Shown here one piece after another: positions 2,145 to 10,812 of a stretch of DNA of 29,487 bases. Source of the stretch: a virus; the UHGV virus genome UHGV-0160150; one strand, 5' to 3'. Each line of letters opens with the position of its first letter. The first letter of the stretch is position 1. A model generated the notes under the pieces. It searched no databases, was not told the DNA's origin, and saw only the letters and a program-made list of their open reading frames with translations. The position numbers and the translations under genes were made by a program.

Positions 2145-2821
2145 GCGGCGTTTTCCTTAATTTGATGAACATTATTGATGCCGTAGTAATCACAAACAGT
2201 GGCATCGACGAAAGAGAGATCGTTATCAATCTCATTGGAATCAAACATTCCCATTGGGGATTTGACAGTGTCTGCACCGTTGTTTTTCGTGGTGAAAAAG
2301 AACTGGTCATCGCGGGTAAGAGTGCGAAGAACTATAGTAAACATGCCTTCGACAGTGATTTTCTCGTCCAGCATTTTGCCGATAGTTTTCATTTTCACGC
2401 GCCCCATAGGGGTTTCTTCGGTATGTGCAAGAAAATAGACTCTCAGGTCATCAGGTGCATCCTGTGCAGCCTTAATCACCTCCCATGCGTGGCGGCCTAT
2501 CTCAGTAAATTTATCAAACGATTTTTCTTCTGAGCGGCGCATAAACTCATTGCTCATCACATACTGGAAGTCATCAACAATAACGATTCTTTTTCCGTAT
2601 TCGTGAGCACGCTTAATTGCAGCAACTATTACGTCCCATTTGTCAGTGGTAACTACGGTTCCTTTTTTTGCTCTGGCATCCCATGCAAGCCAGTCTTTTG
2701 ATTTAAATGGTAGCGGCTTGCCTATTGGTTTTATAAGTATTGCTTCCTCTGGATTGATATTTCTCATGCTGGTTGATTTTCCGGTGCCAGATTCACCGAG
2801 TATTAATGTCGCAGTTCCCAT
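2141..2821 (-). CDS. Sak4-like RecA-fold ATPase (phage single-strand annealing/recombination protein)
   Basis: 226 aa with N-terminal Walker A (LILGESGTGKST) and Walker B-like hydrophobic stretch ending in DD (RIVIVDDF). GAGG RBS. Occupies the slot lambda uses for bet/exo, downstream of kil. Confidence 0.75.
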   Translation of the reverse strand: MGTATLILGESGTGKSTSMRNINPEEAILIKPIGKPLPFKSKDWLAWDARAKKGTVVTTDKWDVIVAAIKRAHEYGKRIVIVDDFQYVMSNEFMRRSEEKSFDKFTEIGRHAWEVIKAAQDAPDDLRVYFLAHTEETPMGRVKMKTIGKMLDEKITVEGMFTIVLRTLTRDDQFFFTTKNNGADTVKSPMGMFDSNEIDNDLSFVDATVCDYYGINNVHQIKENAA

Positions 2822-2829
2822 AATTTGCC

Positions 2830-3030
2830 TCAGAATGGTAATTCGGATGGGCAGGAAAGAAATTCGCGCTCATTCATGCGCTCTCTTTGCGCCTGCCATA
2901 AACAAAGTTGTTTCTTTGATTTATCTCCCGCTTTACGCCAGTAACGAGCCTCAGCAATGTGATACTCTCTTTTTAATCGACTTAACTCTGGAGTTTTCGC
3001 CAGTTCTACCGGAATCATTTTGACCTCCAT
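2830..3030 (-). CDS. Small hypothetical protein (62-66 aa) in the gam-equivalent slot
   Basis: ORF between kil and Sak4. Two candidate starts (MEVKM... or MIPVE... with GGAGGT RBS). No motif recognised. Confidence 0.4.
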   Translation of the reverse strand: MEVKMIPVELAKTPELSRLKREYHIAEARYWRKAGDKSKKQLCLWQAQRERMNEREFLSCPSELPF

Positions 3031-3128
3031 TTTCTGTAGGCTTCTACGGCTTCACGAAACATCTTTTCATCGCCAATAAAAGTGGCGATAGTGAATTTAG
3101 TCTGGATAGCCATAAGTGTTTTATCCAT
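3015..3128 (-). CDS. kil: Kil-like small protein (host cell-division inhibitor)
   Basis: 37-aa frame MDKTLMAIQTKFTIATFIGDEKMFREAVEAYRKWRSK. ATG at 3128 sits in ATGGATAA, overlapping the cIII stop. Resembles lambda Kil from memory and lies directly downstream of cIII. Confidence 0.45.
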   Translation of the reverse strand: MDKTLMAIQTKFTIATFIGDEKMFREAVEAYRKWRSK

Positions 3129-3261
3129 TTTTGGGAACTCCTGGCTGATTAAGTATGTCGATAAGGCGTTTCCATCCATCACGTAATTTACGTGTGATTC
3201 GTTCAAGTAAAGATTCGGAAGGGCAGCCAGCAACAGGCCACCCTGCAATGGCATATTGCAT
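3121..3261 (-). CDS. cIII: CIII-like protein (FtsH protease inhibitor, stabilises CII)
   Basis: 46 aa MQYAIAGWPVAGCPSESLLERITRKLRDGWKRLIDILNQPGVPKNG, matching lambda CIII as I recall it. Strong RBS AAGGAG 6 nt before ATG at 3261. Confidence 0.65.
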   Translation of the reverse strand: MQYAIAGWPVAGCPSESLLERITRKLRDGWKRLIDILNQPGVPKNG

Positions 3262-3287
3262 GGTGTGCTCCTTATTTATACATAACG

Positions 3288-3310
3288 AAAAACGCCTCGA
3301 GTGAAGCGTT
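3288..3310 (-). terminator. Putative intrinsic terminator (minus strand), upstream of cIII
   Basis: Minus-strand hairpin AACGC...GCGTT followed by a TTTCGTT tract. Confidence 0.35.
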
Positions 3311-3321
3311 ATTGGTATGCA

Positions 3322-5664: not shown

Positions 5665-6372
5665 TTACCAACTATGAGACGACCAGAATACTCTGCCAAT
5701 AATCCTTACGGTTTCATGAAATTCATCTCTATCCATTACTTCATCCGGGTACTCTTCGCGATTTATTGATCTGATTATCACCGATGTAGGGGTGGCGATT
5801 AATGTTTTTACTCGTAACAAATCAGACTGGCAAATAGCGTAGGTTTTACCATCTCTGATTGTGGTATCTTGCGTGTTAACACCAACAACATCGCCATCGT
5901 GAAGCGTTGGTTCCATGCTTTGCCCTACAACCCTAACTAGCTTGGCTGATCTTTCTGATACTCCCATCTTTTTCAGATAGTGCTTTCTGAAAACCAAAGA
6001 GAACTCCGATGATTCCTCTAGCTCGCAGCTACCGCTTCCAGCTGAAAGCGAAACGTTAAGAAGAGGCAACGCAACAAACTCGTCATCGTTTCTTTTAATG
6101 TCTTCCCATACCACAGCTTTTAAAGATGACTCACGGACATTGGATGGTTCTTCATGTGCACCATCCCTCATTTCACCAATACCAGAACTAAGCCATTCAG
6201 GACGCACTTTTAAAGCATTGGCTAATTCAACCATCTTGCGAGATCCGTTTGTTTTACCGGACGACATCTTCTGTATGGCTGGCTGAGATATTCCAACCAT
6301 GTCAGCAAGCTGTGATTGTGATACCCCTGCTGAGCTCATGGCTGCATTTAGTCTTTCTGCGAATGTTTTCAT
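5665..6372 (-). CDS. cI: CI-type prophage repressor (HTH plus LexA/S24-like autocleavage domain)
   Basis: 235 aa from ATG at 6372 (MKTFAERL); the track start at 6402 is TTG. HTH SQSQLADMVGISQPAIQKM; C-terminal S24-like region (GQSMEP serine context, conserved Lys). Apparently leaderless: pRM -10 TAGATT lies 7 nt upstream. Divergent from cro. Confidence 0.85.
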   Translation of the reverse strand: MKTFAERLNAAMSSAGVSQSQLADMVGISQPAIQKMSSGKTNGSRKMVELANALKVRPEWLSSGIGEMRDGAHEEPSNVRESSLKAVVWEDIKRNDDEFVALPLLNVSLSAGSGSCELEESSEFSLVFRKHYLKKMGVSERSAKLVRVVGQSMEPTLHDGDVVGVNTQDTTIRDGKTYAICQSDLLRVKTLIATPTSVIIRSINREEYPDEVMDRDEFHETVRIIGRVFWSSHSW

Positions 6373-6379
6373 ACTCACA

Positions 6380-6450
6380 AATCTATAACTACGGTTATCC
6401 AAAGTAAAATAACAAAGGTTATTGCTATTTTTTATAACTTGAGTTATCTT
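6380..6450. promoter_or_regulatory. oR with divergent pRM and pR; three perfect 14-bp operators ATAAC-N4-GTTAT
   Basis: Operators at 6385-6398, 6409-6422 and 6434-6447. pRM (minus): -10 TAGATT (6380-6385), -35 TTACTT (6402-6407). pR (plus): -35 TTGCTA (6422-6427), 17-bp spacer, -10 TATCTT (6445-6450), the same -10 as pL. Confidence 0.6.
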
Positions 6451-6483
6451 TGGTTATAAGTAATGACCACAAGAGGTATGCTC

Positions 6484-6708
6484 ATGAATTTAGTAATTCA
6501 ACGAGCCTTGAAAATTGTCGGTAGCCAAAAGCGCCTTGCCGACAAGTGTGGTGTAACGCAGCCAGCAGTACACAAATGGCTGAAAGGCGGGTTGGTCTCT
6601 CCAGAGAAAGTTACCGCCATCGTTAACGCCACTGGAGGGCAGATCAAGGCTTACGAAATTCGCCCCGATTTGCCACACCTGTTTCCAAAACCGAATCAGG
6701 CAGCATAA
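6484..6708 (+). CDS. cro: Cro-like HTH regulator
   Basis: 74 aa from ATG at 6484 (AAGAGG RBS); HTH QKRLADKCGVTQPAVHKW. First gene of the rightward operon, divergent from cI. Confidence 0.7.
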   Translation: MNLVIQRALKIVGSQKRLADKCGVTQPAVHKWLKGGLVSPEKVTAIVNATGGQIKAYEIRPDLPHLFPKPNQAA

Positions 6709-6716
6709 GTAACACC

Positions 6717-6760
6717 GCTCTTTAACAGTCATGGTCCTCATTCCCGCCGAAATGCGGGAA
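6717..6760 (+). promoter_or_regulatory. nutR candidate (boxA-like CGCTCTTTAACA plus boxB hairpin TTCCCGC-CGAAAT-GCGGGAA)
   Basis: Same boxA and boxB as the minus-strand nutL site; located between cro and cII as in lambda. Confidence 0.55.
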
Positions 6761-6817
6761 TACAACGCGCATCAGTTGGTGCGCATAACTTCTTATTTGT
6801 TAAGGAAATACTTACAT

Positions 6818-7096
6818 ATGCAACTTACAAGTACTCGCAAGAAAGCGAATGCAATTACAAGCAACATCCTAAATCGAATTGCTGTACGTGGTCAGCGAAA
6901 GGTTGCTGATGCATTAGGGATCAATGAATCGCAAATTTCGCGATGGAAAGACAGCTTTATCCCAAAGATGGCCATGCTTCTGGCTGTGCTGGAGTGGGGT
7001 GTTGAAGACGAGGAATTAGCGGAGCTGGCAAAGAAAGTAGCCATGGTGCTGACAAAAGAAAAGCCTCAAGACTGCGGCAACAGTTTTGAGGCCTGA
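6818..7096 (+). CDS. cII: CII-like transcriptional activator
   Basis: 92 aa from ATG at 6818 (AAGGA RBS). Conserved ...[29 protein letters not shown]... matches lambda CII's SQISRWK...[10 protein letters not shown]. Confidence 0.8.
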
Positions 7097-7130
7097 TGTA
7101 GAAAGACTGGATCAATCCACAGGAGTCATT

Positions 7131-7277
7131 ATGACAAAACAACTCAGTCCTTACCAGGACAAAATTCACAAACACATACTACGTGATCGCTTCCTGTCCA
7201 GCTTCAAGCAGCCTGGTCGATTCCGGGCTGAGTTGGAAAAAGTGAAGCTGATGCAGAAGGAGAAAGGTCATGAGTAA
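7131..7277 (+). CDS. Small hypothetical protein (48 aa) between cII and O
   Basis: ATG at 7131 preceded by AGGAG (6 nt); the stop overlaps the O start region. Confidence 0.4.
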
Positions 7278-8130
7278 TCTTGCAACCGTAACACATTTAA
7301 GGCCCTCACAACGGCCTGTGGAGCGTCGTGTGGCAGAAGTTGAAGATGGTTATACCCGTCTTGCAAATGCCCTGTATGAAGAGCTTATCGGCGCAGATTT
7401 AACAAAAAATCAGAGCAAGGTTGCCCACGCCATATGCCGTAAAACATACGGATACGGTAAAAAGATGGATCGCATCTCTGATAGTCAGTTAGCTCAAATT
7501 ACCAGGCTGCCAAGACAGAAGGTAAACAAGGCCAAGAATGAGCTTATCGCGATGAAGGTAATCCTTCGCGAAGGCCAGCAAATCGGGCCTAACAAGAACA
7601 TCGAGGAATGGCAAATCGAAGGGTGTCACTACTCTGGTGATAATGTCACTGCATTGGTGACAAAAAGTGTCACCAAAACGGTGACAGCGCTGTCACCAAA
7701 ACAGGGACACACAAAAGAAACTATTACAAAAGAAAAAAGAAATAATAAAAACACTATGTCCGAAAGTGTTCGGACGGAGTGTGAAAAATCATCTGACCGT
7801 CACGAAGAAACCGACAAGGCATTCGAGGAAATATTCTGGTGTGCAGGCATGCGGAAAGCCGGGAAAAAAAACGCAGCTTCGGCATTCAGAACACAGTTCA
7901 GGGAATGGCGTAAAACTACCAGGGGTACGGCAAGCGAGTTTGCCACGATGCTGGCAGAAGACATCGCATGCAGGAATGGTAAGCAGTTCGGATTCGACAG
8001 GTTGTTACCATCGAGCTACTTGAACGGTCAGCGCTGGAACGACGAAAAGCCAGAAACCATTCAACCACAATCCAAACCATCATCCGCAATCACCGTATCG
8101 AAAACTGGCTACGTGTTTTTCGACAGGTGA
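7270..8130 (+). CDS. O: Replication initiator, lambda O-like N-terminal domain
   Basis: 286 aa. N-terminal region ([53 protein letters not shown]...GPNKNIEEW) matches lambda O's ori-binding domain as recalled; C-terminal half differs. Contains the iteron ori. Confidence 0.8.
7624..7775. repeat. Putative replication origin inside the O gene: iterons, AT-rich tract, palindrome
   Basis: Palindromic iterons GGTGACA-AAAAG-TGTCACC (7656-7674) and GGTGACA-GCGC-TGTCACC (7680-7697) plus degenerate TGTCAC copies upstream; an A-rich stretch 7711-7750; inverted repeat GTCCGAA-AGTG-TTCGGAC (7758-7775). Same layout as lambda ori. Confidence 0.6.
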
Positions 8131-8133
8131 ACC

Positions 8134-8241
8134 ATGAAATCAAAAATCAAATCGCTACTGGTCGCTGGTTATAACCACGGCTGGTTAAGTATTTCGTTTG
8201 TCGATTTCTGGTTTAAAAATCTCAATCTGAGGGAATCATGA
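8134..8241 (+). CDS. Small ORF (35 aa) coupled between O and the primase-helicase
   Basis: ATG at 8134 with AGGTGA RBS overlapping the O stop; its TGA overlaps the primase-helicase ATG (ATGA). Found by eye. Confidence 0.3.
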   Translation: MKSKIKSLLVAGYNHGWLSISFVDFWFKNLNLRES

Positions 8242-10118
8242 GGCCAAGTGAACTTAGCGACCTGCTTTGGGCGCAGGTTGACAGGGTGGCTCCGCACCTG
8301 TTGCCAAATGGCAAGAAAGAGGGGCATGAGTGGGTTGCCGGTAACGTCAACGGTGACAAGGGAAACAGCCTTAAGGTCAACCTTAGCGGCAAGAAAAAAT
8401 GGGCTGATTTCGCTGAGGGAGACGGCGGTGACATGCTTGATTTGTGGATGGCATGTCGTGGAATTAACCTGCATCAGGCTATGCAGGAAGCGAAAGCATT
8501 TCTCGGTATCAAGGATGACGATCACCATTTCGATGCCAGACGTGAGAAAAAATTCTCCAGACCTGATCGCAAGAAAATCGCCCGCTACGTTACCAGAACA
8601 GAATCCCATCTTGAGTACCTGCAATCGCGTGGCATATCGCCAGAAATCGTAAAGCGCTACGAGGTTGTCAGCGGCAAGGTGTGGAATGGAGAGCGGGAAC
8701 TGGATGCTCTGGTGATTCCGTACAAACGCGATGGTGAGTTGTTGCAGGTCAAGCGAATCAGCACTGAGCGCCCGGACGGGAAGAAAGTCATTATGGCAGA
8801 AGGTGATTGCGAACCTTGCCTGTTCGGATGGCAGGCTCTGGACGCTGGCGTGAGGGCGGTTGTACTTTGCGAAGGCGAAATTGATTGTATGAGCTATGCG
8901 CAATACGGCATCTCGGCGTTATCCGTACCGTTTGGTGGAGGGAAAGGCGCTAAGCAACAGTGGATTGAGTTTGAGTATCACAACCTCGACAGGTTTGAGG
9001 AAATATTCATCTCGATGGACGTTGATGATGTTGGTCGTGAAGCCGCAAGGGAAATCGCAAGCCGACTCGGTGAACATCGTTGCCGTCTTGTTACTCTGCC
9101 GTGCAAAGACATCAACGAATGCCTGATGAACGGTGTTACCGAGGATGAAATCTGGCAGTACATCGGCACGGCATCCTACTTCGATCCTGAAGAACTCTAC
9201 AGCGCGCGAGAGTTTTACCAGGACACTATCAACGCTTTCTACGGCAAGCAGCAGTATCTGTTTAATCCACCGTGGGAATCTCTGGCAGATAAATTCCAGT
9301 TCCGTGAGGCAGAGTTGACGCTGGTCAATGGTGTGAACGGTCACGGAAAAACGGAGGTTGTCGGGCATATGGCACTTGAGGCAATGCGTCAGGGTGTGAA
9401 GACGTGCATCGCGTCACTTGAGCTGAAGCCTGGTATTCTCCTTAAGCGCCTTACCCGTCAGGCGACGTGCTGCAAGATGCCGCCAGTGCTGGAAATTGAC
9501 TCTGCATTTAAATTTTATGACGAAAGACTTTGGGTGTTTGGCCTGACCGGAACGGCGAAAGCCGACAGGCTGATCGAAATATTCGACTACGCTCGCCGCC
9601 GATACGGGATCCAGTTATTCATCATCGACAGCCTGATGAAATGTGGCATAGGCGACGATGACTATAACGGGCAGAAGGCGTTTGTTGACTCGATTTGCGA
9701 CTTCAAAAACAAAACAAACTCCCACGTCATTCTCGTTACTCACTCGCGAAAAGGAGACAGCGAAGAAAAACCAACCGGGAAAATGGACGTAAAAGGCTCT
9801 GGAGCGATAACAGACCTGACAGACAACCTTTTCATCATCTGGCGTAACAAGGCTCGCGAGAGAGCGTTACAGAGAGTTCAGAGTGGTGAAAAGATGTCAG
9901 AGAAGGACGAACAGCTACTGGCATCTCCGGCATCTGTTTTGATGCTTGAAAAACAACGTAACGGCGAAGGTTGGGAAGGTGGTGTCCCGTTGTTCCTTGA
10001 CGAGCAATCGCACCAGTTCCTGCAACTTGAATCAGGATCGCCATATAGCTACATCGCCAATATGCCGAAATCGGAATATGACGAGGCGTGGCGACAGGAA
10101 AACGTGACGGAGTATTAA
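8238..10118 (+). CDS. Primase-helicase fusion (Toprim primase N-terminal region, DnaB/RecA-like helicase C-terminal region)
   Basis: 626 aa. Toprim-like acidic motifs (VVLCEGEIDCMSY, ISMDVDDVGREAA); C-terminal Walker A-like VNGVNGHGKTE and Walker B-like LFIIDSL. Takes the place of lambda P. Confidence 0.8.
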   Translation: MRPSELSDLLWAQVDRVAPHLLPNGKKEGHEWVAGNVNGDKGNSLKVNLSGKKKWADFAEGDGGDMLDLWMACRGINLHQAMQEAKAFLGIKDDDHHFDARREKKFSRPDRKKIARYVTRTESHLEYLQSRGISPEIVKRYEVVSGKVWNGERELDALVIPYKRDGELLQVKRISTERPDGKKVIMAEGDCEPCLFGWQALDAGVRAVVLCEGEIDCMSYAQYGISALSVPFGGGKGAKQQWIEFEYHNLDRFEEIFISMDVDDVGREAAREIASRLGEHRCRLVTLPCKDINECLMNGVTEDEIWQYIGTASYFDPEELYSAREFYQDTINAFYGKQQYLFNPPWESLADKFQFREAELTLVNGVNGHGKTEVVGHMALEAMRQGVKTCIASLELKPGILLKRLTRQATCCKMPPVLEIDSAFKFYDERLWVFGLTGTAKADRLIEIFDYARRRYGIQLFIIDSLMKCGIGDDDYNGQKAFVDSICDFKNKTNSHVILVTHSRKGDSEEKPTGKMDVKGSGAITDLTDNLFIIWRNKARERALQRVQSGEKMSEKDEQLLASPASVLMLEKQRNGEGWEGGVPLFLDEQSHQFLQLESGSPYSYIANMPKSEYDEAWRQENVTEY

Positions 10119-10200: not shown

Positions 10201-10812
10201 ATGCGAATAAAAAAAACAATTGATCACGATGAGCTTCTGTCAACATTATCATATGACTCAGAAACAGGAATATTTAAATGGCTAAAAACAAATTCAGTAG
10301 TAAGAGTAAAAGGTAGTATTGCTGGAGGTGTTAGTGGTGGTTATATATGCATTAGCATAAATAATGTTTTGTATTATGCGCATAGGCTTGCTTGGTTCTA
10401 TGTATACAAAAAATGGCCTCCTAAGTTTATTGATCATGTAAATGGGAACAGACTTGACAATAGGATTTCAAATCTAAGACTGGCAACAGAGGAGCAGAAT
10501 GCAAGAAACATTGTAGGTAATAGGTTAAACACATCCGGTGCGATTGGAGTGTCTTGGGATAAGACAACTGGCAGGTGGAAGTCTTATGTTGGTTATAAAA
10601 ATAAGACAATATCGTTAGGGTATTTCGATAGCAAAGAAGATGCAGCATTCATAGCAGCACTAGCAAGAAAGAAACTATATGGAACTTATGCGAGTAAAGC
10701 ACTTAATTGCGAGCATGAGCTTTTATCTCAATTTAATAATGATGAGGATAAACTTGCGGAATATCTTAAGGAAAAATCTAAAAGGACTCGAAAGCGTGTT
10801 AAAAAAAGATAA
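10201..10812 (+). mobile_element. HNH homing endonuclease with AP2-type DNA-binding domain (free-standing)
   Basis: 203-aa ORF. N-terminal LLSTLSYDSETGIFKWL, HNH core IDHVNGNRLDNRISNLRLATEEQN, AP2-like segment GVSWDKTTGRWKSYVGYKNKTISLGYFDSKEDAA. Strongly AT-rich island between the replication and nin modules. Confidence 0.75.

Follow-up and report, generated by a model that had tools for sequence, protein, structure and literature searches.

A probable lambda-type replication origin with TGTCAC iterons inside the O-like gene of a lambdoid phage

A cluster of inverted repeats within an O-like initiator gene is very probably the theta-replication origin of a lambdoid phage of the P22/HK620-like mosaic kind, and it is built like oriLambda. 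The DNA analysed is a stretch of 29,487 nucleotides from a viral genome (UHGV-0160150), referred to here as the window or the 29.5-kb window. It corresponds to the early region of a phage or prophage that belongs to the lambdoid P22/HK620/Sf101 mosaic group. When the window was compared with phage records, none covered 80% or more of it.

The genes preceding the array are those of a cI-like repressor (5665-6402, minus strand), a cro-like gene (6463-6708), cII (6731-7096) and a DUF2740 ORF (7086-7277). The O-like gene follows at 7270-8130 on the plus strand. It encodes a replication initiator of 286 aa that matches the Pfam family Phage_rep_O over aa 20-114 (E = 1.1e-37), and its DNA, with the whole origin included, is 98-99% identical to the O genes of mEp043, Sf101, SEN22 and vB_EcoP-720R6. 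A putative winged-helix origin-binding domain occupies the N-terminal part (aa about 20-115; 7327-7614, plus strand), as assigned from an AF2 model and the Phage_rep_O match, and a C-terminal domain of the ES18 gp59 type is encoded at 7777-8127 (plus strand). The array starts at codon 119 of 286, in the linker between these two domains. An earlier reading made from the sequence alone (the sequence-only reading) had placed an origin inside the O-like gene, and the position of the array in the linker of a Phage_rep_O gene agrees with this.

Two further ORFs lie downstream on the plus strand. The first encodes 35 aa (8134-8241) with 97% identity to ES18 gp60 and has no Pfam match. The second encodes a phage primase-helicase of 626 aa (8238-10118) of the T7 gp4/Twinkle type, with the Pfam domains Toprim_2, AAA_25 and DnaB_C; it matches T7 gp4 structures (E = 7e-25) and is 94% identical to ES18 gp61. 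No Rfam family was found near the origin, and the sole Rfam match in the window was the cIII thermoregulator at 3216-3274.

The steps by which such an origin would act can be drawn from lambda biochemistry (Tsurimoto and Matsubara 1981; Zahn and Blattner 1985, 1987; Dodson et al. 1986; summarised in PMC7466680). By homology with lambda, dimers of the O N-terminal domain would bind each of the four iterons through a helix at aa 82-94, the bound dimers would assemble an O-some and bend the DNA, and the O-some on supercoiled DNA would melt the adjoining A-rich tract at 7710-7757. Gene linkage suggests that the ES18 gp59-type C-terminus would then bring in the phage's own T7-gp4-like primase-helicase instead of P-DnaB. 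Initiation might in that case proceed without P-mediated loading of host DnaB, and probably without DnaG.

The A-rich tract and the dyad to its right

The sequence-only reading described an A-rich stretch of roughly 40 bp beside the iterons, and we found it directly to the right of the last iteron at 7710-7757 (plus strand). Its composition and its near identity to lambda 39119-39150 mark it as the presumed DNA-unwinding region. A 40-nt segment starting at 7713 contains 72% A and 85% A+T, no other 40-nt stretch in the window is as rich in A as 7711-7750 (72% A), and GC content drops to 0.175 at 7720-7759. The tract opens with the box CACAAAAGA, which is common to all lambdoid origins examined. 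Downstream of the iterons CAAAACAGGGACACACAAAAGAAACTATTACAAAAGAAAAAAGAAA in the window matches CAAAACAGGGGGACACAAAAGACACTATTACAAAAGAAAAAAGAAA in lambda, and the tract is nearly base-for-base that of lambda.

The right-hand element is the inverted repeat GTCCGAA-AGTG-TTCGGAC, likewise picked out in the earlier reading and located at 7758-7775, with imperfect arms extending to 7751-7782. Its folding energy as single-stranded DNA is -11.9 kcal/mol (z = -6.8). Divergent dyads were collected by two single-sequence scans, a profile scan with the C-terminal domain having given only near-identical relatives. Across 20 distinct right halves of the primase-helicase type, the eight-pair dyad was paired in 88% of cells on the plus strand and 91% on the minus strand. 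Three of the four variable pairs changed on both sides (16 cells), with replacements that included TCC..GGA to AGC..GCT and C..G to T..A. The covariation score was reached by none of 500 shuffles, and controls slid along the alignment paired at no more than 49%. The replacements move between serine codon families and turn Thr into Ser, so it is the nucleic acid that is under selection.

A more speculative reading, less likely than not, is that lambdoid origins have a second cis-acting determinant of specificity in the dyad, which would be matched to the helicase system. In this module it would form a hairpin, or bind a dimer, so that the T7-gp4-like primase-helicase can be loaded or primed. 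Origin function would then depend on two matched pairs: iterons and O N-terminus in one, dyad and O C-terminus plus helicase in the other. Such a role fits a dyad that lies in coding sequence and is kept by compensatory double substitutions, and it fits the observation that the P, DnaB-type and primase-helicase modules each travel with their own kind of dyad. In lambda, two iterons and the A-rich tract suffice for unwinding in vitro (PMC7466680).

It is unlikely that the dyad is instead a hairpin that is no component of the origin, either a leftward (antisense) intrinsic terminator or a structure in the rightward O mRNA. The minus-strand hairpin, followed by a T-run that is the complement of the A tract, does score as terminator-like, and the compensatory changes that maintain the dyad would suit a hairpin; the same covariation is, however, to be expected from the site of a dimeric protein. 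All five one-sided changes are C.A on the plus strand and hence G.T on the minus strand, which accounts for the rise in pairing from 88% to 91%, but this bias is not significant since two or three events probably account for all five wobble cells, and we dropped it as evidence. A dyad to the right of the A-rich tract is moreover common to the origins of lambda, phi80, P22 and HK97, with unrelated sequences, which fits an origin-linked role at least equally well. A rightward intrinsic terminator at the dyad was rejected, as no T-run follows it on the plus strand and the terminator-like matches were on the minus strand only.

Register and constraint of the iterons

The array consists of four units of a 19-bp hyphenated palindrome, TGTCAC-N7-GTGACA (TGTCACCAAAACGGTGACA in the lambda register), starting at 7624, 7644, 7668 and 7691. 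Iteron 1 (TGTCAC-TACTCTG-GTGATA, 7624-7642) has a degenerate right half, iteron 2 is TGTCAC-TGCATTG-GTGACA (7644-7662), and iteron 3 (TGTCAC-CAAAACG-GTGACA, 7668-7686) is a perfect dyad that aligns with lambda iteron 3. The right half of iteron 4 (TGTCAC-CAAAACA-GGGACA, 7691-7709) is degenerate as in lambda iteron 4, with which the unit aligns column for column. Start-to-start spacing is 20, 24 and 23 nt, about two helical turns, and the N7 spacer is constant in all four. Of the 13 TGTCAC hexamers that the 29.5-kb window contains, six are clustered in the 73 bp from 7624 to 7696. In the lambda GenBank record, O-binding iterons are annotated at 39034, 39054, 39078 and 39101, that is, with the same spacing of 20, 24 and 23. 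The central spacer CAAAAC is shared by lambda and the window, and the flanks are homologous to those of lambda on both sides, the upstream flank being the coding sequence for GPNKNI.EW.

A different unit had been proposed in the sequence-only reading, namely GGTGACA-N4/5-TGTCACC (GGTGACAAAAAGTGTCACC) in two perfect copies preceded by degenerate ones. The two perfect copies are present, with N5 at 7656-7674 and N4 at 7680-7697, against 0.00 expected from 100 shuffles. The half-sites were thus correctly recognised, but the phasing was half a repeat off: the proposed units are the junctions between iterons 2 and 3 and between iterons 3 and 4. The supposed degenerate upstream copies did not hold up either, as they differ in geometry, this phasing giving spacers of 1, 5 and 4 nt.

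The eight half-sites alternate in orientation, so that the two registers are indistinguishable from one sequence alone. We read the array as four iterons in the lambda register because of the constant N7, the identical spacing of the mapped lambda sites, the homologous flanks and the CAAAAC spacer. There is little likelihood that the protein-binding unit is GGTGACA-N4/5-TGTCACC, with two good sites at 7656-7674 and 7680-7697 and the flanking hexamers as weak extras, even though both units are perfect palindromes absent from shuffles. That register replaces a constant spacer of 7 nt with variable ones and orphans two half-sites, at 7624 and 7704. It is the TGTCAC-N7-GTGACA units that align with the annotated O-binding sites of lambda, and their internal spacer that matches lambda's. 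The minimal site for lambda O is a 19-bp inverted repeat (PMC7466680), and the 19-bp geometry with N7 recurs in every other lambdoid type examined. The alternative register was therefore rejected on spacer geometry and on homology to the mapped sites of lambda.

Viral contigs were scanned with a DNA pattern in which only the half-sites of iterons 2 and 3 were specified, which gave at least 120 loci. The matches listed include 67 distinct origins, in which iterons 1 and 4 are un-ascertained. Among these 67, the left half TGTCAC of iteron 1 stands exactly 20 nt before iteron 2 (position -20) in 61, that of iteron 4 stands at +47 in 65, and the right half of iteron 4 is the degenerate GGGACA in 56; the spacers within and between iterons are more variable than the half-sites. 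Third-codon conservation was 0.94 in the un-ascertained half-sites of iterons 1 and 4, compared with 0.62 in the upstream domain-coding sequence (p = 2.4e-4). The opening 24 nt of the A-rich tract scored 0.91 against the same upstream value of 0.62 (p = 1.2e-3). The hexamer TGTCAC is read in three frames, giving Cys-His in iteron 1, (x)Val-Thr in iterons 2 and 3, and Leu-Ser-Pro in iteron 4. By this pattern of conservation, the iteron repeats are constrained as DNA and not as peptide.

We also considered whether the array binds O without firing, for autoregulation, titration or incompatibility only, with the primase-helicase starting replication elsewhere. T7-type primase-helicases function without an O-like initiator in T7, and phage replication can be inhibited when plasmids carry additional lambda iterons (PMC3349717). 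A silent array is nevertheless very improbable, given that the complete lambda-type set of iterons, A-rich tract and dyad is conserved at synonymous sites, that O C-terminal domain and helicase gene go strictly together, and that no second iteron array was seen within the 29.5-kb window. Finally, the array is translated and its peptide looks repetitive, but it is scarcely credible that the repeats are the mere DNA image of a low-complexity peptide linker without function as DNA, and we rejected such an artefact on reading frames and synonymous-site conservation: the hexamer yields different residues in iteron 1, iterons 2 and 3, and iteron 4, synonymous positions in the half-sites are far more conserved than the adjoining domain-coding sequence, nothing at the protein level would explain why the half-sites are inverted, and the same architecture with unrelated half-sites occurs in every lambdoid O gene examined.

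Initiator domain, helicase and two modules

The N-terminal domain of O was compared across the loci that carry the array. At 119 of the 120 loci among the matches listed, the N-terminal 115 aa are 65.8-100% identical to those of the window and 48-62% identical to lambda O, although iterons and domain lie less than 30 nt apart, so that this strict pairing is partly expected and shows co-inheritance, not binding. The one remaining locus is cut. A tblastn search of phage genomes with the domain returned 13 records at 99% identity or more (mEp043, Sf101, SEN22, 720R6 and the PhiR12 phages), as well as Proteus phage vB_BPM-V3 at 69%. TGTCAC iterons were confirmed by reading the origins of mEp043, PhiR12_1 and vB_BPM-V3. 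Relatives below about 65% N-terminal identity carry other half-sites: TGTATCC in Omnitron, TGTTACC in Midgardsormr38 and phiEt88, TGTCTCC in Pocitis76 and CurroJimenez, TCCCTC in lambda and ES18, TTTACC in P22 and PhiR5_1, TTAGC(C) in HK97 and EhrS_49, and TTCCCG in phi80.

A sequence search of the PDB found no solved O protein structure. The AF2 model of O aa 1-125 is a winged helix with helices at 46-59, 71-78 and 82-94 and a hairpin at 98-107 (pLDDT 72, core about 90); the alignment behind it was shallow, and the homologue search gave mostly truncated proteins. Its best fold matches in the PDB were the dimeric winged helices of CRP, MarR and CodY, and these were weak (E >= 6.5e-3, TM about 0.4). 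The third helix of the predicted domain, aa 82-94, is the putative recognition helix, a term that denotes assignment by fold class in view of the moderate model quality and the weak PDB matches.

This helix is invariant in 55 distinct domains of the TGTCAC type. It reads SRQNVNKAKKEL in the TGTCTC type and SRSKANIAKNEL in the TGTTAC type, and its counterparts are PVKRCNEAKLEL in lambda, APTKCSTAKNEL in P22 and HHTHVCAAKRQL in HK97. Iteron and helix thus form the pairs TGTCAC with PRQKVNK, TGTCTC with SRQNVNK, TGTTAC with SRSKANI, and TCCCTC with PVKRCNE, a series that fits a helix which reads the half-site. The proposal that a different iteron sequence goes with a different initiator is supported comparatively, both by the association of the listed loci with this N-terminal clade and by a helix that differs where the iterons do. 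From this we infer a distinct replication specificity.

In a megablast search, the matches to the O gene divide at the origin. The segment 7270-7742 is 99% identical to the PhiR12 phages, and 7697-8130 is 93-96% identical to ES18, epsilon34 and g341c. PhiR12 homology ends at about 7742 and that of ES18 begins at about 7697, so that the crossover zone comprises the last iteron and the first part of the A-rich tract, which is conserved. The O C-terminus is essentially identical to ES18 gp59 from about aa 165 on, and this domain belongs to no Pfam family. Identity to lambda O is 49% over aa 1-157, with no similarity found beyond aa 157. The right half of the primase-helicase type occurs with at least five iteron types. 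The type of O C-terminus went with the type of the next gene at all loci compared among the matches listed (primase-helicase after the window type, 39/39; P after the lambda type, 14/14; a DnaB-like gene after the P22 type, 19/19), a pairing between neighbouring genes that is likewise partly expected from adjacency.

On these comparisons, the origin is made of two exchangeable modules joined within the A-rich tract. The left module, consisting of the N-terminal domain and the iterons, would set origin specificity, and the right module, consisting of the dyad, the C-terminal domain and the helicase system, would set helicase specificity. In 1978 Furth, Yates and Dove reportedly found with lambda-phi80 and lambda-82 hybrids that ori is matched to the N-terminus of O and P to its C-terminus. 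The two-module split seen in the window matches these classical hybrid results.

Distribution and comparison with known origins

The same 241 bp were found in 182 of 5,426 complete E. coli genomes (about 3%), where they carry no annotation other than "replication protein". Among species representatives, 15 have the array, all of them Enterobacterales, and the DNA-only scan placed it in at least 120 viral contigs. The mEp043 record contains no origin feature, the Sf101 paper does not mention iterons or an origin, and a literature search for the iteron sequence returned a single match, an unrelated schistosome paper. The TGTCAC iteron class appears to be undescribed, though trivially inferable. 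Lambdoid origins as a kind of element have been textbook material since about 1980; the origin is an ordinary, widespread member of this well-known kind, and the established picture of lambdoid replication is unchanged by these results.

The analysis does provide a usable origin annotation for the viral contigs, for prophages of the 15 Enterobacterales species and for about 3% of complete E. coli genomes. The series of iteron and recognition-helix pairs could help to work out how O-family winged-helix domains read DNA. Replication specificity would predict which co-resident lambdoid prophages can cross-activate the initiators of one another or titrate them. The results also place a favoured crossover point of phage mosaicism inside the A-rich tract.

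With oriLambda the window shares a position in the middle of a Phage_rep_O gene, inside the O linker; four dyad iterons of ~19 bp at the same spacing, with an A-rich central spacer; a near-identical A+T-rich tract; a dyad to the right; and co-variation of iterons with the O N-terminus. Judged from sequence, this lambda-like layout is a matter of homology, not analogy. The half-site and helix differ, being TCCCTC and PVKRCNE in lambda and TGTCAC and PRQKVNK in the window. The O C-terminus is unrelated, the right-hand dyad has another sequence, and a phage primase-helicase with Toprim and DnaB-like domains stands downstream in the place of P, a gene the window lacks; the origin is accordingly not of the lambda O-P-DnaB subtype. 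The sequence-only reading had likened the whole layout to lambda ori. That comparison is sound for iteron spacing, A-rich tract and linker position, but the right half and the O C-terminus are of the ES18 type and not lambda-like.

The origin does carry the ES18-type module. From the A-rich tract on, the right half resembles that of ES18, epsilon34 and g341c (gp59-gp60-gp61), with the dyad GTCCGAAAGTGTTCGGAC included, and the likeness to ES18 takes in the gp59-type O C-terminus, the 35-aa ORF and the primase-helicase at the identities given above. The ES18 record annotates the equivalent place as "similar to lambda ori". The iterons and N-terminal domain of ES18 itself are of the lambda type, in contrast to the TGTCAC type of the window (TCCCTC versus TGTCAC, with N-terminal identity of about 50%). 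In the PhiR12 phages, the N-terminal domain and iterons are exactly those of the window; PhiR12_1 differs to the right of this shared half, where its dyad and O C-terminus are of the lambda type and P is present.

P22 (gene 18/gene 12), HK97 and phi80 have the same architecture inside an O-family gene, each with its own iteron sequence, a principle of lambdoid O-family origins set out in PMC8022706. In the P22 and phi80 records, the corresponding segments are labelled as the origin or as sites of initiator binding. These phages differ from the window in their half-sites (TTTACC, TTAGCC and TTCCCG, respectively), in their partner, which is a DnaB-type helicase in P22 and HK97 and a P-like protein in phi80, and in their right-hand dyads, which are GC-rich or of the lambda type.

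Iteron plasmids offer a more distant parallel. Their initiators (pPS10 RepA, F RepE, R6K pi) are winged-helix proteins as well, and repeated sites lie beside an A+T-rich unwinding element. In the plasmids, however, Rep monomers bind direct repeats and the rep gene does not contain the origin, whereas the units in the window are inverted repeats, presumably bound by dimers, in an origin inside the gene.

The box adjoining the last iteron and the right half of iteron 1

At window positions 7710-7718 the box CACAAAAGA adjoins the last iteron, and when the equivalent place was read in the other origin loci compared (L001-L016), it directly abutted that iteron in all examined lambdoid origins but one. 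This count comprises origins whose stretch reaches the iteron boundary; PhiR5_1 and Gifsy-2, whose stretches end at or before the boundary, were left out. Carriers included lambda, ES18, P22 and HK97, together with Erwinia, Hafnia, Proteus and Citrobacter phages. Presence of the box was independent of iteron sequence or helicase module among these origins, and its synonymous sites were conserved. The sole exception was phi80, which lacks the box and has GACACCCAATACAAGAAC at the iteron boundary.

The right half of iteron 1 (7637-7642) is GTGATA in the window. Among 67 distinct related origins (L017-L136, found by the TGTCAC array pattern), the expected GTGACA was rare (4/67), and the commonest form was GTGTCA (31/67). 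With the GTGTCA variant, iteron 2 gains an adjacent extra TGTCAC that runs in the direct orientation.

Half-sites, putative recognition helices and a divergent N-terminal domain

When L006-L010 were compared with the window, the half-sites formed a graded set with a common TGT..C skeleton (TGTCAC, TGTCTC, TGTTAC and TGTATC), and the putative recognition helices paired with them differed at only 2-4 residues. These pairs could provide a natural series with which to map DNA reading by the O family.

At locus L237 (IMGVR_UViG_3300031415_000119, 2386-3315), a very different N-terminal domain is joined to the window-type right half, which runs from the last part of the A-rich tract through the dyad and the ES18-type C-terminal domain to the primase-helicase. 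This N-terminal domain gave a sub-threshold match to Phage_rep_O (E = 0.009). The 19-bp palindromes are replaced in L237 by direct repeats of approximately 11-12 bp (GAGGTAACAAA / GAAGTAACAAA), and the box CACAAAAGA is absent.

On the minus strand, a leftward reading meets first the dyad (7758-7775) and then the complement of the A tract, which is T-rich; the site scores as intrinsic-terminator-like. All five one-sided dyad substitutions observed in relatives (5/5) give G.T on the minus strand and C.A on the other.

Neighboring genes and relationship to known phages

Between O and the primase-helicase lies a 35-aa ORF, MKSKIKSLLVAGYNHGWLSISFVDFWFKNLNLRES (8134-8241), whose stop overlaps the primase-helicase start as ATGA. 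It matched no Pfam family and is 97% identical to ES18 gp60. A homing-endonuclease-like ORF with HNH_3 and AP2 domains (10201-10812) separates the primase-helicase from NinB in the window, whereas NinB directly follows the primase-helicase in mEp043; because of this adjacency, the ORF looks like an insertion.

Only one Rfam family reached its gathering score in the window, namely Lambda_thermo, the cIII thermoregulator (3216-3274, minus strand, 88.5 bits). Since no phage record covered 80% of the window when positions 1-25000 were compared, the window phage is a new mosaic made of known modules. The best record for this region was vB_EcoP-720R6, with 55% coverage and 94% identity.
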